DNA from: Bacillota bacterium
GTDB lineage: Bacteria > Bacillota > Clostridia > Ch29
Direction of reading: 5' to 3'
Assembly (NCBI GenBank): GCA_013540605.1
Contig: JABVCK010000009.1
Span: 100,341 to 164,340 of the forward strand
Length of the DNA stretch: 64,000 bases
Every line of letters starts with the position of its first letter. Position 1 is the stretch's first letter. Under the pieces are notes generated by a model that had not been told where the DNA came from, searched no databases, and saw only the letters and a program-made list of their open reading frames with translations. Of this stretch, positions 21,685-58,448 are shown in pieces. The position numbers were made by a program, and so were the translations under genes.

Positions 21685-21737
21685 AGTTAGTAATAGAATA
21701 TAGACAGACCGGTACATATCTAGTATAATTATTTATG

Positions 21738-21832
21738 AAAGAGCTCCGAGCCTTGGCTTCTAAGGGCAACTATGAAGCCGGGCCGATAGGGCATAAGGGG
21801 AAACCGTTGTGCCTCCCATGTTGGAAAGGAGT
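21738..21832 (+). promoter_or_regulatory. Candidate Moco/Wco riboswitch aptamer in the leader of the tungstate-transporter/moe/moa gene set
   Basis: A structured ~95-nt leader downstream of a TATAAT box (21724). It contains CUCCGAGCC, AUAGGGCAUAAGGGGAAAC, GCCUCCC and GGAAAGGAG segments, followed by an intrinsic terminator. The genomic context (tupABC, moeA, moaA, moaC) is classic for Moco RNA motifs. The motif identification is from memory and was not searched. Confidence 0.4.
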
Positions 21833-21849
21833 TATAAACAGCTGATTTT

Positions 21850-21890
21850 ATAGCGGTTTCCATCATGGATGGAACCGCTATATTTATTTC
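21850..21890 (+). terminator. Intrinsic terminator/attenuator hairpin (ATAGCGGTTTCCATC-atg-GATGGAACCGCTAT) with a U-rich tail, immediately after the riboswitch-like leader
   Basis: 14-15-bp stem with one bulge, followed by ATTTATTTC. Confidence 0.6.
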
Positions 21891-28417: not shown

Positions 28418-28430
28418 TTTTATGAGCAGT

Positions 28431-28982
28431 TTTACCCATTTTAATACCGACGGCAGGGCCAAAATGGTAAACGTAAGCGGTAAGGATGTTACAACCAGGG
28501 AAGCGGTTGCCCGAGGAAGGGTATACATGAAAAGCGAGACAATCGACCTCATTGAAAAGGGCCGGATGAAGAAGGGCGATGTGCTTGCCGTTGCCCAGGT
28601 GGGTGGAATAATGGGAGCCAAGCAGACATGGAGCCTGATACCTATGTGCCACCCCCTGAATATAAGCGGAGTTGACATGGCCTTCGAACTGAACAGGGAT
28701 ATAAGCGCCGTTGAAATAGAAGCAAGGGTTTCGGTCGAAGGGAAAACGGGGGTTGAGATGGAAGCCCTTACCGCGGTGTCGATCGGAGCCCTTACGGTAT
28801 ATGACATGTGTAAGGCGGTAGATAAGGAAATGGTAATAGGAGATATCATGCTGGTGAAGAAGACCGGCGGCAAGTCGGGAGATTTTGTTAGTAGCGTGGT
28901 AATATGTCAAGAAAAAGTTTTTGGAACCTTGTTCGATAGAGCCAAGGAAGAACTTCGAGAACATACTGAGGAAAAAGGATAG
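28431..28982 (+). CDS. moaC: Cyclic pyranopterin monophosphate synthase
   Basis: 183 aa. MoaC fold motifs (VDMAFELNRD, EMEALTAVSIGALTVYDMCKA). The ATG at 28431 has a GGAGGG RBS. Confidence 0.8.
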   Translation, partial: FTHFNTDGRAKMVNVSGKDVTTREAVARGRVYMKSETIDLIEKGRMKKGDVLAVAQVGGIMGAKQTWSLIPMCHPLNISGVDMAFELNRDISAVEIEARVSVEGKTGVEMEALTAVSIGALTVYDMCKAVDKEMVIGDIMLVKKTGGKSGDFVSSVVICQEKVFGTLFDRAKEELREHTEEKG

Positions 28983-29439
28983 CCTGGACAACCATACGAA
29001 TATACGTTGCCGGTGTCGGCTGCCGAGGATGTCATCTCGCAGACTGGCTCTGATGAGCCGTCGGAAACCGATATGGTTGCGGAAGTTAAGGGAATGCACT
29101 TTTATATGATAGCGACCTCAGCAGGAATTTCCCCGAAGTGACCATTGAATATGGCATCATATACAAGGGTTTACACGTATTTGGTGGCTGGTTACCATTC
29201 CTGTTGATTGGTCAAGATATTATACAGGAGTGTGATATTGGTAAAACGTAACTGTATACAATAAGCGATACCTGCGGATATTGCCATATGGTGAAACAAT
29301 ACCCATGATAAGAATACCCCACACTGAAAAAACGTTTCCAGGGATGCAGATGCCCGTGTAAGGAACTGGATTACAGGGTTACATGGGGAGTCCCGGTTAT
29401 CCTTGTTGGAACGAAACGGTGGTGGGCTTTCGGACAAAA

Positions 29440-29640
29440 CCAAACTTGACCAGCTGCTATAGCCAGTGGCTAGTGGTTAATGATCAGTGGTCATGACAGA
29501 TCACAGATCACAGACGTCAGGGAAGTGCTTATGGGAAAACCCAAGATTTTGCCCAAGAACCTGTGACCTGTGAACTACGAACCAGCAACTCCACCTGCCA
29601 TCTGCCATCTATGACCCAGGATCCAGTATCCAGAACTTAA
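29440..29640. repeat. Low-complexity intergenic repeat family B: CAGTGG/CAGATCA-rich, containing ACCTGTGAACTACGAAC
   Basis: Shares the exact 17-mer CCTGTGAACTACGAAC and CAGTGGTCA-type iterations with the element at 40340-40420. Confidence 0.6.
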
Positions 29641-29649
29641 AATAGAAAC

Positions 29650-29676
29650 CGCGTTATATAAAGCGGTTCTCTTATT
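29650..29676. terminator. Hairpin AACCGCG-ttatataa-AGCGGTT with U/A-rich flanks on both strands (bidirectional terminator candidate)
   Basis: 6-7-bp stem with T-rich runs on both sides. It lies between the intact moa operon and the inverted pseudo-moa segment. Confidence 0.35.
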
Positions 29677-29769
29677 CTTCCAATTTGATTTCTGCCCCCA
29701 GGTTTATTTTGCCTCAAATGACTTTTGCAAATATCCCTCGGTCGGCATGATAACACCGCCCACCTGCTT

Positions 29770-30655
29770 AAAGATGGCGCATTTCATGGCATTCTTCCTT
29801 CACCTGGCTTATTTCCAGAAGCACTTCTCCGTCCTGATCCGGTACCGGATATCCAGCTGCAGTGCCTTATGCCTTCCGTAGTAATGTTTTCCGCAAACTT
29901 CTTCCGGTAACACAGCCCTTTATGCCCAGTAAGTAATCTTATCATATGCTCTCTGCCAGCAGGCTCACCTGCTCGTTATTTTCCGCATGCCATGTCGCCT
30001 TCCGCCCGAAATCCTTTATGAAGTTACCCCTCAGCTATACCTCTTGGGGACCTCTTTTCGCTAATGTTGCCAAATCTCACTTTCCTCTATCATTTCCATA
30101 CCTCCTAACAAAATTCCTCCGACTTGCCGCCGCCGGTCTTCACCAGCATGATATCTCCTATTACCATTTCCTTATCTACCGCCTACACATGTCATATACC
30201 GTAAAGGGTTCGATCGACAATCGCGGTAAAGGGCTTCCATCTCAACCCCCGTTTTTCCTTCGACCGAAACCCTGTTTCTATTTCAACGGCGCTTATACCC
30301 TCTGTTCAGTTCTCGAAGGCCATGTCAACTCCGCTTATATTCAGGGTGGCACATAGGTATCAGGTTCATGTTCGCTTGGCTCCCATTATTCACCACCTGG
30401 GCAACGGCAAAGTTAACATCGCCCTTCTTCATCCGGCCCTTTTCAATGAGGTCGATTGTCTCTGCTTTTCATATACCCCTTCGGCAACCGCTTCCCTGGT
30501 TGTAACATCCTACCGCCACGTTTTGGCCCTGCCGTCGGTATTAAAATGGGTAAACTGCTCAAAATCACCTCCTCGATTTTGGTACACATTTCGCCTGTTC
30601 CCGCCGGCGTCCTGCATTCTTCCACGTGGGAGGGCAAGAGATACCTGGATGGTTC
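29770..30655 (-). pseudogene. Decayed inverted duplicate of a moa segment: moaA 3' end, moaC-like region with indels and frameshifts, and a frameshifted MOSC-domain remnant
   Basis: The reverse complement of 30040-30650 aligns at nucleotide level with 28330-28900 (moaA end plus moaC). For example, cctaacaaaattcctccgacttgccgcc at ~30095 matches the reverse complement of 28861-28890, and tcctcgattttggtacacatttcgcctgttcccgccggcgtcctgca matches the reverse complement of the moaA stop region. Minus-strand frames at 29770-29935 read ...KKFAENITTEGI... and GEVLLEISQVKEECHEM, which are MOSC-domain motifs split by frameshifts. Only short ORFs remain. Confidence 0.65.
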
Positions 30656-40422: not shown

Positions 40423-41223
40423 CTAAATCTTTACAAATTCCGGGTTTCCATCAGAGAAACGGGAAATATACCTGAAACCGGCGCTGCGGGCAATGTCCAG
40501 CGCCTGGGGAAAACGCTCCGCAACCTGGCTCGGCGTATGGGCGTCCGAGCCTATGGTTAATATTTCTCCTCCCAGCTCTCTGTACCTTTTTATCAAGTCA
40601 AAATCCGGCATAGTGCTGGAAAGATTATAGCGAAACCCGGAAGTATTTATCTCCAGGCCCCTTCCGGTGCTGATCAGCAGCCTGAAAATTTCATCAAGTA
40701 TATCGCTGTAGTCCGGATATCTCAGCGACCTGTCCCGATAGTCCCCGTATCTTCTTATAAGGTCAATGTGGCCCAGCACATTGAACCTGGAAAACCCGTC
40801 AACGCACCGGTAGACCTCCTGAAGGTATTCGAAGTAGGTCTCTTTTTTTGTGCGGTTGGCACAGAATTCGCCGTTGTGCAGGTCCATTTTTTTTACCGCA
40901 TGAACAGAGGCTATTATAAACTGGAAATCCTTATCTTCCAGGTAGTCCACACATTCTTTTATGACATGGGGCTGAACACCGATTTCTATTCCCTTAATTA
41001 TGCTAATTTTGTTTCCAAAGCTCTCCCTTGCCCTGTCTATCGCATCGGAATATAAGGTGTAATCCAGGTCAAATTCGATGCTGCTATCCGGATAATCGAT
41101 ATCCAGGTGGTCGGTTACGGCTATCTCAACGACGTCTTTAGCGATTGCCGCTGCGCACGCCTGGCGAAGCTCCATTCTGCCGTCACTTGAGAAACCCGTA
41201 TGGATATGGTAGTCATAATACAT
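40423..41223 (-). CDS. hisJ: Histidinol-phosphatase, PHP family (HisJ/HisK type)
   Basis: N-terminal YDYHIHTGFSSDG PHP motif. The ATG at 41223 is preceded by GGGGAGGG. The ORF track's longer start is less likely. Confidence 0.75.
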   Translation of the reverse strand: MYYDYHIHTGFSSDGRMELRQACAAAIAKDVVEIAVTDHLDIDYPDSSIEFDLDYTLYSDAIDRARESFGNKISIIKGIEIGVQPHVIKECVDYLEDKDFQFIIASVHAVKKMDLHNGEFCANRTKKETYFEYLQEVYRCVDGFSRFNVLGHIDLIRRYGDYRDRSLRYPDYSDILDEIFRLLISTGRGLEINTSGFRYNLSSTMPDFDLIKRYRELGGEILTIGSDAHTPSQVAERFPQALDIARSAGFRYISRFSDGNPEFVKI

Positions 41224-41607
41224 AGATAACCCTCCCCTATTGTACAATAGAGATTTTACTAGCGACACAGCCCGATGTCAAGGGCAGGCGCATCAACCCT
41301 CCATTTAGGGGGAGGGGGAATGATAATAATATCTCAGCGCTTGCCGATTTTCACACAGTTGACGTTCCCTTAATATATATTAATTACCAAGAGAAGAAGG
41401 GATTTGGATATATATACAGAATAATACTATTATAGCAAATATGGTTAACGAGGTGAGATGCTTGTATCCCATACCGTGGTATGTTGCACTGCTGGAAACT
41501 GTACCTGAAACATTTCTTGTTATTAAGTTGGGTTTTAGGCTTTTCGAAATGGATGTAGATACAAGAAAGGCCTTGATAATATCTCTGATGAACGGGGATT
41601 GATAGCC

Positions 41608-42537
41608 ATGATAAAAGATAGAAGCCTAATTATAATGAATACCATATTGGTACAGATACTTCTGATTGTTATAGTTAACCAGCAGATAATGACAATGGAG
41701 GACATGAACATTTATAAACAGTGTTTACCCTTTTTGAATCTACTGGTAATAATACTGGGAATTTTCTCAATGTTTTCTATAACGGAGATTAAGAAAAGCA
41801 CCTCCATGTCAGTTGAAGTAAGCCTTATAAAAAACCACCTTGAGCAGATAGAGAGGCTGGCAGAGGTGCTGCATAAAAGCAAGCATGAGCATGCAAGGCA
41901 TATACAGACCATACAGTCAATGCTTAACCTGGGAAAGTACGATAAGGCGATAGAGTATATAGAGGGTATTGCCGAAAGTTACTGGCCTTGTGACGAGATG
42001 GTGTATGTAGACCATCCTGCATTAACGGCACTCTTGAACAGCAAAAAAAAGAGCGCCGAGCTAAAGGGTGTGGAATTTGCCTTCTGTGCAAAGTGCGATT
42101 TAAAAAACATACCGGTTAAACCCTGGGACCTATGCAGCATGGTGGGAAACCTCCTGGACAATGCCTTTGAAGCCGTTGTCTGCACGCAGGGGCCAAAGAG
42201 GGTGGGGCTTGAGATAAAGCATGAGCAGGGCCATTACATAATATATGTGCATAACAGCGGCCCCCGCATACCCGACAGGTTAAAAGAAGAGATATTCAAT
42301 CCCGGCGTTACCACAAAGGGGTCCCCTGCAAGGGGCTACGGCCTGTACCTAGTAAAAAAACTGGTGGAGGAGTATGGCGGGCATATAGAAGTTATATCCG
42401 GGGACAAAACCACATTTATCATATATTTGCCGGATCTACCTATTCCAGATGCCTGGTTACCGGGCTTGCCCCAACAGCATGTGGATACTTTACGAGCCGG
42501 ATATACCCCGGAGCCTGAAAAAATAAGGATTGGTTAA
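41608..42537 (+). CDS. GHKL-type sensor histidine kinase of the LytTR-partner class (AgrC/SpoOB-like, HATPase_c_5)
   Basis: N-terminal TM segments. C-terminal GHKL ATPase motifs (NLLDNAFEAV, HNSGPRIP, GYGLYLVKK). Adjacent to a LytTR regulator. The start could be TTG 41599 or ATG 41608. Confidence 0.65.
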   Translation: MIKDRSLIIMNTILVQILLIVIVNQQIMTMEDMNIYKQCLPFLNLLVIILGIFSMFSITEIKKSTSMSVEVSLIKNHLEQIERLAEVLHKSKHEHARHIQTIQSMLNLGKYDKAIEYIEGIAESYWPCDEMVYVDHPALTALLNSKKKSAELKGVEFAFCAKCDLKNIPVKPWDLCSMVGNLLDNAFEAVVCTQGPKRVGLEIKHEQGHYIIYVHNSGPRIPDRLKEEIFNPGVTTKGSPARGYGLYLVKKLVEEYGGHIEVISGDKTTFIIYLPDLPIPDAWLPGLPQQHVDTLRAGYTPEPEKIRIG

Positions 42538-42538
42538 C

Positions 42539-43267
42539 ATGGTAAGCATACTTATTCTTGAAGATGAATACTATACCAGGGAATACCTAAAAGGGCTGGT
42601 GGCTAAAAACCCTCTCGCAAGCAGGGTTATAGACGTGTCATCCGGCAGCGAGGCAGTAAGGACTGCGAAGGAGCACCTCCCGGATATTGCACTGCTTGAT
42701 ATAGAGCTGGATACGGGGGAAGGTATAAACGGTATAGATGTGGCAAAGATGATTCAGGATATAAACCCTCGGATGCACTTAGCGTTTATAACCGGCTACG
42801 CAAAGTACGCCCTGGATTCCTTCCGGGTACACCCCTACGACTATATACTGAAGCCTTTCAAAACCGAGAGGGTGATGGAGGTAATATCAACCCTTGCGGC
42901 AAAAGTACTGCAGGATAGGGATACGGATAATGCCACTGACAAAATAACGATAAGAACAGGCGATGAAATACTTTTTCTAAGGGCGGAAGAAATTCTGTTT
43001 ATAGAAAGGCAGGGTAAATAAACCCTTGTCCACACGCTTAACAGTATTCATGAAATAGCTATGTTCCTTAACGAGCTGGAAGGGATATTACCCCAAAACT
43101 TCCTGAGGGTCCACAAATCCTTTATCGTAAATACCGATAAAATAAAGAAGATCAGAGAAGTAAGCAGGAGGTCATACGAAATAGAGTTCTATAATTATAA
43201 TAAGACAGCCCATATGAGCAGGTATAAATACAAAGAGCATAAGGAATTGTTTTCCCCCTCCAGATGA
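42539..43267 (+). pseudogene. LytTR-family response regulator (REC plus LytTR) interrupted by a single in-frame TAA at 43019-43021
   Basis: ORFs 42530..43021 and 43061..43267 are in the same frame (offset 531). The stop falls inside the LytTR domain, where homologs have an aromatic residue (...FIERQGK*TLVHT...). Downstream, LRVHKSFIVN and the rest of the LytTR domain are intact. Confidence 0.6.
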
Positions 43268-43317
43268 GGGGTGTTTTTTTGCTGCTCAGGGCACAGCCTC
43301 TGGGTCATTGAGTCGCC

Positions 43318-43372
43318 GTATTGGGCTATTCAGTTCCCATATTGGGCTATTCAACCCTCAAAATGGGCTATT
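43318..43372. promoter_or_regulatory. Three direct repeats (TATTGGGCTATTCA x2 and AAATGGGCTATTCA) with 21-bp periodicity. Candidate LytTR-regulator binding sites.
   Basis: Repeats at 43318-43331, 43339-43352 and 43359-43372. LytTR regulators (AgrA, PlnC, ComE) bind 9-bp direct repeats separated by 12-bp spacers. Located 50 nt downstream of the regulator gene. Confidence 0.55.
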
Positions 43373-43723
43373 CAGGAAAACGGGAAGGAAAGGTTAAAAG
43401 GGGTGTAGAATACAATAATAGGAAAAAATAACATCCCTGCCGGAGGACAAGCTCTGGCCGAGACTGACACCGGCAGGGACCACCCTTTACCTGTCAGAGA
43501 CAGGCTGGGAGTTAAGTCTATTATACCTCCCTCCTCTGTCTCTGTAAAGGTAAAGGAGACTCTAAGAGGGAGGAGTGGTGTGTATTAAAATATAAAAATA
43601 ATTAGAGTAATTTTGTCGGCAGATTATTCTGAACACGAAGGAACGTTGTAGTTTGGTGGGAATATTATTCGTAGTTCTATCTTACGAATAATATTTACTA
43701 AAAATACGAGGGAGTGTATTATT

Positions 43724-44347
43724 ATGAAAAAAGCCTTCAGTATGATAATAAGTGTTTTTTTGTTACTCAATCTGTTATCGGTTAATGTGGCTTCAGCAGG
43801 CAAAGTAGATTCGCAATCAGAGGTTATTTTGCAATTAAAGGCAAATGAGGAACAATTGAAAATACTTAATAGTCTAGATAGAACAGATATGACATTGTAT
43901 GAGGTTATAAGAGAAGTATTCCCTAAGGAGTTTTCAAAACTAGATAGAGAAACTAAAATAAAACTATCCATGATGAGATATGGGGAGCAAAATAATGGTG
44001 ACGGCGTAGGTATTTTTGCTGATCTAACATATGGTTCGGAGATTACAGGATATGGCAATTCACTAAAATTCTGGTCATATAATGATTTGAGCTGGGTTAG
44101 TCCAGAAATGTGGGTGGAATCAAAGCTAATTGACGACGATACTGGCGATATAGTCGAATATGCTTTAGAGGCAGCTACGTATACTTCTTATTTAGAAGCG
44201 GGTGATATTGAAGACCCACCAACAGGAAACTACAGAGTCCATGGCGATCATTGGTGGCTATATTATGATTCACTGTATAATGATTGGCTATGGCTGCATT
44301 TAGTTTCACATACTAGGACGTTTAGTTATGTAAACCCATATGAATAG
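43724..44347 (+). CDS. Secreted hypothetical protein (signal peptide, W/Y-rich C-terminus)
   Basis: N-terminal signal peptide MKKAFSMIISVFLLLNLLSVNVASA. No recognisable domain. GAGGGAG RBS. Confidence 0.5.
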   Translation: MKKAFSMIISVFLLLNLLSVNVASAGKVDSQSEVILQLKANEEQLKILNSLDRTDMTLYEVIREVFPKEFSKLDRETKIKLSMMRYGEQNNGDGVGIFADLTYGSEITGYGNSLKFWSYNDLSWVSPEMWVESKLIDDDTGDIVEYALEAATYTSYLEAGDIEDPPTGNYRVHGDHWWLYYDSLYNDWLWLHLVSHTRTFSYVNPYE

Positions 44348-58222: not shown

Positions 58223-58448
58223 ACCATCGCCTCCGAAGATATTATACTATAGGAAGGATAATAAAAAAAGCGCCTCCCGCACTCCGCTATGGAACCCTAG
58301 GTTCCTTCGGCGTCCGGCACTTACTCATATATGCTTCCTTACTCTTATATACTTTGTAGTAAGTGCCGGACTGAGCACCCTCCTTAAACCGGCGGGGAAC
58401 CTTTCCCCTGCACCCCTTCCTTTTTTTATAACACTCTCGAAAACTCGT

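Follow-up and report, generated by a model that had tools for sequence, protein, structure and literature searches.

A shared nonsense codon in the LytTR regulator gene of an apparently decaying agr-type cassette from an uncultured Bacillota bacterium

The locus described here raises a simple question, namely, what to make of a response-regulator gene whose receiver and LytTR domains lie in one frame that is broken by a TAA codon inside the DNA-binding domain. The gene lies within a stretch of 64,000 nucleotides of bacterial DNA, which was analysed as a whole and is hereafter called the window. A preliminary description of the gene had put forward a recent inactivating nonsense mutation, a sequencing error and programmed read-through as possible answers. 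As argued below, we consider it highly probable that the gene has become a pseudogene through a fixed nonsense mutation, and that the cassette around it is a redundant and decaying agr-type quorum-sensing paralog in an uncultured Bacillota bacterium (MAG HPY66).

The interrupted regulator gene and its stop codon

The features of the regulator gene, all on the plus strand, are as follows.

42539..43267 (+): receiver plus LytTR regulator gene, now a pseudogene, whose product ends after residue 160 (translation; Pfam; 84-86% identity to P0001 and P0002)
43019..43021 (+): in-frame TAA at codon 161, in the window and in L001, L002 and L022; CAA, AAA or CGA in paralogs
43022..43264 (+): untranslated rest of the LytTR domain, 81 codons (Pfam; the last 68 codons are HPY66_0817 in GenBank)
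43255..43280 (+): intrinsic-terminator-like hairpin and T-run where the regulator gene originally ended, conserved in paralogs

Translation of this region gave a single receiver plus LytTR frame of 242 codons, consisting of 160 sense codons, the TAA, 81 further sense codons and a TGA at 43265-43267, with the TAA as the sole break; neither a second stop nor a frameshift was found within the 81 codons that follow it. With the stop masked, Pfam placed Response_reg (PF00072) at residues 4-116 (E 5e-15) and, in the same frame, LytTR (PF04397) at residues 143-238 (E 4.6e-21; profile positions 2-97 of 98), and the 68-aa ORF that follows the stop matched LytTR by itself (E 1.2e-14). The coordinates and domains of the preliminary description are thereby borne out. 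The interrupted regulator is a real broken gene, and a chance pattern of open reading frames is ruled out.

What the stop spares and what it removes can be read from the translation. The N-terminal receiver domain is present with its phospho-acceptor aspartate, and all of the receiver signature residues, E8, D9, D54, T85 and K105, are kept. A complete LytTR domain as part of the same translated chain is absent, and this domain is recognisable at the DNA level only, as translation stops at about position 20 of 98 in its profile. The DNA-contact motif that defines the LytTR family, FhRhHRS (PMC4227749), is encoded as FLRVHKS at codons 186-192, downstream of the TAA, and is therefore untranslated. 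The regulator has a weak but specific sequence match to the AgrA structures 3bs1 and 4xqq and to ComE (4cbv); in 3bs1 the TAA site aligns with the loop K167-S168 | H169-R170, which is the first beta-hairpin loop of LytTR. The gene is thus a member of the LytTR/AlgR family by descent, as a pseudogene, and not by function.

In both GenBank and JGI the locus is annotated as two ORFs, of 160 and 68 aa, with the LytTR match in the second one, as would be expected if the regulator were naturally split into a stand-alone receiver and a stand-alone LytTR protein, the latter made by re-initiation at the ATG at 43061. We find such a split scarcely credible. First, the 68-aa ORF begins at LytTR profile position 36 of 98, and it lacks the strand that bears a conserved histidine (H in 107 of 119 homologs). 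Second, there is no Shine-Dalgarno sequence before ATG 43061 and no ATG, GTG or TTG in 43022-43060, and residues 161-174 would fall in neither product. Third, no homolog is split in this manner: the 119 homologs that were aligned, each 200 aa or longer, are without exception single chains that run through the stop position, and orthologs that end here and are followed by a separate LytTR gene, an arrangement that the preliminary description had allowed for, were not found among them. By exact-sequence look-up, the 160-aa product is identical to MBA1335194.1 (HPY66_0816, from a MAG labelled 'Firmicutes bacterium') and to MDI6705550.1. HPY66_0816 and HPY66_0817 (and MDI6705550.1), which were deposited as two hypothetical proteins, should be annotated as one pseudogene.

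The homologs also bear on the codon from which the stop arose. The five closest relatives have full-length regulators, 83-86% identical to that of the window; four of them measure 242 aa, among them P0001 and P0002 (84-86% identical), and one measures 261 aa owing to a 19-residue N-terminal extension. The regulator of one closest relative is cut by a contig end. Codon 161 is CAA in P0002 and P0001, AAA in P0003 and P0005, and CGA in P0004 (Q, Q, K, K and R, respectively), and its column among the 119 homologs is variable (K26, F13, N13, G13, R10 and others). Tyrosine, which had been taken to be typical here, is not among the common residues. The ancestral codon was, to judge from these sequences, most likely CAA (Gln) or AAA (Lys), and one C-to-T (or A-to-T) change would make the TAA, with CAA to TAA the most parsimonious. 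A one-nucleotide origin of the stop, as first supposed, therefore stands, but not one from TAT or TAC. Two collections of metagenome and genome contigs, neither of which contains this locus, gave no exact match to a locus-specific 39-mer around the stop with the first base of the codon set to N, and a search of both for related loci returned paralog-type loci only (L013-L021), none of them syntenic with the window flanks, and no sister-species ortholog in the strict sense was among them.

Programmed read-through or recoding of UAA, giving some full-length regulator, could draw on the frame after the stop, which is still open and recognisable by Pfam, on the A that follows the stop, and on the many residues that this position tolerates. 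We nevertheless give it next to no credence. Among ordinary stops in the window TAA is the most frequent, closing 25 of 59 ORFs (TAG 20, TGA 14; counted on non-overlapping ORFs of at least 100 aa under the standard code, covering 87% of the window), and genes tile normally under the standard code at this coding density. A tRNA scan found no tRNA gene, so no suppressor tRNA, within the window, and the paralogs and orthologs all have a sense codon at this site, with no conserved recoding site. UAA is read by both release factors, and it is the least leaky stop in bacteria. Stop usage and coding density in the window, together with its tRNA scan, led us to reject an alternative genetic code or a suppressor. 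In an Rfam scan of 41000-44000 no family was matched, bar one sub-threshold chance match.

The same TAA, in the common context GGT AAA TAA ACC, is present in four separately assembled records. In addition to the window, these are L001, which is contig JASEIP010000013.1 of GCA_030017455.1 (99.8% identical to the window over 20.5 kb, with 28 substituted bases and a 10-N scaffold gap); L002, a contig in JGI metagenome 3300001095 (99.86% over 4.4 kb, with 6 differences); and L022, a contig in JGI metagenome 3300027690 that carries the cluster mate P0241 (98.0% over 1.6 kb, differing at 32 positions). On these records, the TAA allele appears to be fixed across the sampled population of a species-level lineage. 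Because four assemblies that differ by SNPs all carry the stop, a sequencing error is effectively excluded; and because it is common to lineages about 2% diverged locally, it is not recent. Of the recent, system-inactivating nonsense mutation that had been proposed, the nonsense character is upheld, the recency is not, and loss of the system is not obvious, as there are two full-length paralogs. The apparent splitting of the L001 kinase into 205 and 100 aa, considered as an extra lesion, was rejected, since it corresponds to the 10-N scaffold gap.

An artefact of another kind, in which the codon really reads CAA or AAA, a sense codon, and the TAA arose by error or from a chimera of paralogs, has also to be weighed. 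All of the records are metagenome assemblies, paralogs that are 85-92% identical in DNA could confuse assemblers, and both L001 and L022 contain tracts identical to a paralog. However, the four assemblies agree on this base although they stem from different projects or samples and show 6 to 37 SNPs elsewhere; a paralog chimera would bring CAA, and no paralog has TAA; and the codons that flank the TAA are locus-specific. An artefact is, in our judgement, very improbable.

Cassette remnants and sister loci

If the regulator gene is a nonsense pseudogene, its neighbours may tell whether it stands alone in this condition. Upstream of it, also on the plus strand, the following features were recognised.

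41441..41602 (+): 53-codon stub of a sensor module that has lost about 330 bp; matches residues 1-52 of the ORFs, 121-165 aa long, that lie upstream in L003, L009, L010 and L012
41608..42537 (+): AgrC-like histidine kinase core with 2 TM helices, SpoOB-type DHp and HATPase (Pfam SPOB_a, HATPase_c and HATPase_c_5; 90% identical to paralog P0121; aligned to 300-aa paralog kinases)
42436..42470 (+): 35 bp of internal agrB sequence, flanked by a deletion junction on each side; 97% identical to L003 2462-2496, which is inside the AgrB gene at 2233-2877
42479..42526 (+): agrD relic, MWILYEPDIPRSLKK and a stop, out of frame with the overlapping kinase tail; compare the 44-aa AgrD-like ORF of L003, which ends in SPNSMWILYEPDIPRSLKK

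These features are best understood against the sister loci, whose layouts are given below.

L003 (P0002), from the same metagenome as L002: 121-aa membrane ORF, 300-aa kinase, AgrB (PF04647), 44-aa AgrD-like ORF and 242-aa regulator
L009 and L012, from other metagenomes: layout as in L003, with membrane ORFs of 164-165 aa
L008, from Pelotomaculum schinkii: layout as in L003, with a membrane ORF of 203 aa
L005/L006 (P0001), L006 being from the same assembly as L001: kinase and regulator only

Between kinase and regulator, the sister loci with the L003 layout carry a 44-46-aa peptide ORF and a protein recognised by Pfam as AgrB. Judging by these contigs, the same genomes appear to hold a full agr-like locus, with kinase, AgrB, AgrD and regulator, and a second kinase-regulator pair.

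DNA alignment to L003, L009 and L012 located the lesions. First, the window at 41595/41592 joins L003 1043 to 1373, which is a deletion of some 330 bp in the sensor-module ORF. Second, window 42434-42470 joins L003 2215 to 2462-2496 and the latter to 2937, with the loss of agrB bar 35 bp and of agrD bar its last codons. Of the AgrB protease gene (PF04647), present in L003, L008 and L012, only the 35-bp relic is found at this locus, and of the AgrD precursor gene, a full 44-aa ORF in L003, only the last 15-16 codons or so are left. The agrB and agrD deletion junctions are also present in L022, and the 53-aa sensor stub is also present in L001. For annotation, the 53-aa ORF next to the kinase is a gene remnant.

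The kinase had been described as intact, which holds for its catalytic part only: the core ORF is open, the sensor module is cut to 53 aa, and the agrBD deletion has given the core a new C-terminal tail. Homology links the membrane ORF to residues 1-154 of fused AgrC-like kinases of 442-456 aa (35-41% identity; E 3e-25 and 1e-32), and it is on this ground that we take it to be the sensor module of the kinase.

In this clade the AgrC-like kinase consists of two adjacent ORFs, a polytopic sensor module of 155-203 aa and a core of 280-300 aa with two TM helices (L009 469-1852; L012 3776-5180; L010 777-2139; L008 2769-4228; window 41441-42537), and the two are fused in the 442-456-aa relatives P0171 and P0219. 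The two-ORF kinase seems to be a true arrangement and not the result of a frameshift, because it recurs in several genomes, including that of the isolate Pelotomaculum schinkii. The sensor-module ORF of L003 (889-1254) has only 121 aa, versus 164-165 aa in L009 and L012, and its end diverges (FFVFGNIQHCR and a stop), suggesting a frameshift there too.

At least three copies of the cassette have lost agrB and agrD, each by deletion at breakpoints of its own, namely, the window (42434-42470), L005 (5912-5953, versus L003 2256-2957) and L010 (2115-2274). From these junctions, several copies appear to have shed their signal-production genes in separate events, with the receptor genes kept each time. 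The loci L016 (4031-4570) and L020 (4999-5538), on two other MAG or metagenome contigs, preserve no more than about 75 codons from the 3' end of a related regulator gene, together with the downstream box and RNA region described below, and are possibly remnants of another decayed copy.

In some strains only, short tracts of the kinase gene are identical, or nearly so, to the intact paralog in L003 (window 41709-41779 versus L001 9170-9240; L022 1-328). A 91-bp tract of the L001 kinase is identical to L003 at 91 of 91 positions, and the L022 kinase segment is 99.1% identical to L003 versus 93.7% to the window. This pattern suggests either gene conversion between paralogous cassettes or paralog-chimeric assembly. 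No paralog-identical tract covers the TAA, and the stop is unrepaired in all four records. Gene conversion from an intact paralog could keep the sequence of the locus healthy-looking without selection.

Substitution counts and a possible receiver-only product

In the pseudogene reading that we favour, the ancestral cassette would have comprised a sensor membrane module, a kinase core, AgrB, AgrD, a LytTR regulator and an operator-box promoter. Three kinds of lesion would then have accumulated: the truncation of the sensor module through the loss of about 330 bp, the deletions that removed agrB and most of agrD, and a single-base change at regulator codon 161, most parsimoniously CAA to TAA. 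The predicted product consists of the receiver, the linker and about one-fifth of the LytTR domain, from its N-terminal end, and, without FhRhHRS, would have no role as a DNA-binding activator. Such a loss of regulator function would be tolerated because the same genome appears to keep the full agr-like locus as well as the second kinase-regulator pair, with the same putative boxes.

The agr system of Staphylococcus, Listeria and clostridia is the closest known parallel. It is alike in that the regulator of the window combines a receiver with LytTR, the kinase belongs to the SpoOB-type/GHKL class and is labelled AgrC by JGI, and the sister loci encode AgrB together with a 44-46-aa peptide and have direct-repeat boxes at a 21-bp spacing. 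It is different in the gene order, which here is kinase, agrB, agrD and regulator as opposed to agrBDCA, and in that the sensor module of the kinase is here a separate ORF. Several agr-like loci per genome, some of them orphan, are known from clostridia, as in the case of Agr1/Agr2 and RgaS-RgaR of C. difficile and agr-1/agr-2 of C. botulinum. These resemble the present situation in that there are several modules per genome, and L005, L010 and the window, which have no agrBD, would depend on a peptide from elsewhere; in the window, however, the receptor side is itself damaged, by both the sensor truncation and the nonsense codon in the regulator. Loss of function of agrA, including premature stops and frameshifts, is well documented in S. 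aureus and Listeria as a route to agr loss (PMC7479134), with the difference that the broken copy described here is one of at least three paralogs and not the only agr locus of the cell.

The substitutions were counted for what they may reveal about selection. Those specific to the window are, in the regulator, 4 synonymous and 3 nonsynonymous before the stop and 1 and 3 after it (5 and 6 in total), and in the kinase 4 and 8, respectively. Between the window and L022, both of which have the stop, five regulator codons differ (42, 142, 168, 173 and 174), all nonsynonymously, whereas the two regulator differences between the window and L001/L002 are both synonymous. These counts lean toward relaxed constraint, but they are not significant and are too few to separate relaxed from purifying selection. 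Some residual function of the kinase or of the receiver-only product is conceivable, because the kinase core ORF and all receiver signature residues are preserved.

It is tempting, therefore, to consider the 160-residue product of receiver and linker as retained for use as a single-domain regulator, that is, as a phosphate sink or decoy for paralogous AgrC-like kinases that would tune the quorum-sensing output of the intact copies. Like the single-domain phosphate sinks of the CheY or Spo0F type, the predicted product is essentially a receiver with all of its phospho-acceptor residues; in contrast with them, it derives from a two-domain protein cut short and still carries part of the output domain. 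The allele is fixed, being present in all four assemblies, an open kinase core ORF lies directly upstream of the intact receiver residues, the two differences from L001/L002 in the receiver part are both synonymous, and the paralog regulators, at 84-86% identity, make cross-phosphorylation plausible. Against this, no independent example is at hand: among the homologs listed, only this cluster ends here, and among the matches listed from the protein databases searched there is no family of such truncated receiver proteins. In addition, about 25 residues of a broken beta-domain on the product would likely be destabilising, the changes before the stop between the window and L022 are 2 nonsynonymous and 0 synonymous, and the deletions of the sensor module and agrBD alongside point to general decay. 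We therefore regard a retained receiver-only product as unlikely. The more specific proposal, in which the nonsense allele is kept since a receiver-only stub, co-transcribed with the open kinase core, damps two intact agr-type paralogs as a decoy or phosphate sink, seems to us more doubtful still. If true, quorum sensing would here have acquired a negative regulator through the domestication of a truncation.

Returning to the nonsense pseudogene, the stop codon by itself would be an ordinary one that opens no new question, a known kind of event met here in an uncultured anaerobe. The locus as a whole can be seen as a small, clean case of decay in a duplicated peptide-signalling cassette, in which the signal-production genes appear to have been lost independently in several copies, followed by the sensor module and the regulator, with gene conversion from an intact copy possibly ongoing.

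Operator-like boxes and a structured RNA downstream

Beyond the end of the regulator gene, two further features were found.

43301..43374 (+): four direct repeats at 21-bp spacing, TGGGTCATTGA followed by three copies of TGGGCTATTCA; putative LytTR operator array, conserved 3' of regulator genes
43434..43556 (+): conserved two-hairpin RNA element 3' of the box promoter (inverted repeats; consensus fold of 39 pairs, 5 of them with compensatory changes, from 7 loci)

The exact 11-mer TGGGCTATTCA has three copies in the window, versus 0.04 expected by chance, and all of them are in this array. An array of this kind lies directly 3' of every regulator gene in this family. It is conserved in L003 (3768-3841), L005 (6783-6835), L009 (3319-3392), L010 (495-568, 3101-3174 and 6117-6148), L013, L014 and L018, and it is degenerate in L008 of P. 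schinkii. L010 has three such arrays. Since AgrA binds direct repeats upstream of P2 and P3 (PMC4227749), the boxes fit the architecture expected of a LytTR operator, although TGGGCTATTCA is not the AgrA consensus and, differently from agr, the boxes lie 3' of the regulator gene and face variable cargo genes. A -10-like TAGAAT follows them at about 43407. From its position and conservation, the array is probably the LytTR operator of an output promoter facing cargo genes that vary between copies, to which the regulators of these cassettes would bind. Intact paralogous regulators could still drive the promoter of the window, because their loci share the same boxes.

The two-hairpin RNA has no match in Rfam, and the cargo genes beyond it differ between copies of the cassette. 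Within window 43434-43600, CCUCCCUC has two alternative pairing partners, one inside hairpin 2 and the other a Shine-Dalgarno-like site further downstream, GAGGGAGG, which precedes a tiny ORF of about five codons. The RNA could be a leader, a riboregulator or an RNAIII-like effector. In P. schinkii (L008 6137-9750), the cassette and its boxes are followed 3' by two small ORFs (50 and 100 aa) and two radical-SAM/SPASM enzymes, and the cassette may there control a RiPP gene cluster. The two-ORF kinase, the operator array and the structured RNA, which would drive a variable cargo of secreted proteins, are likelier to repay work than the stop codon.

Elsewhere in the window, the largest gap in the non-overlapping ORF set, of about 1.5 kb with no ORF of at least 100 aa in a window that is otherwise 87% coding, is at 28418-29945. 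An Rfam match to the Clostridiales-2 sRNA lies at 58300-58425 on the minus strand (65.2 bits, versus a gathering score of 58.6), and a Moco (molybdenum/tungsten cofactor) riboswitch lies at 21732-21847 on the plus strand (68.7 bits, versus a gathering score of 36), upstream of an ORF that starts at 21865.
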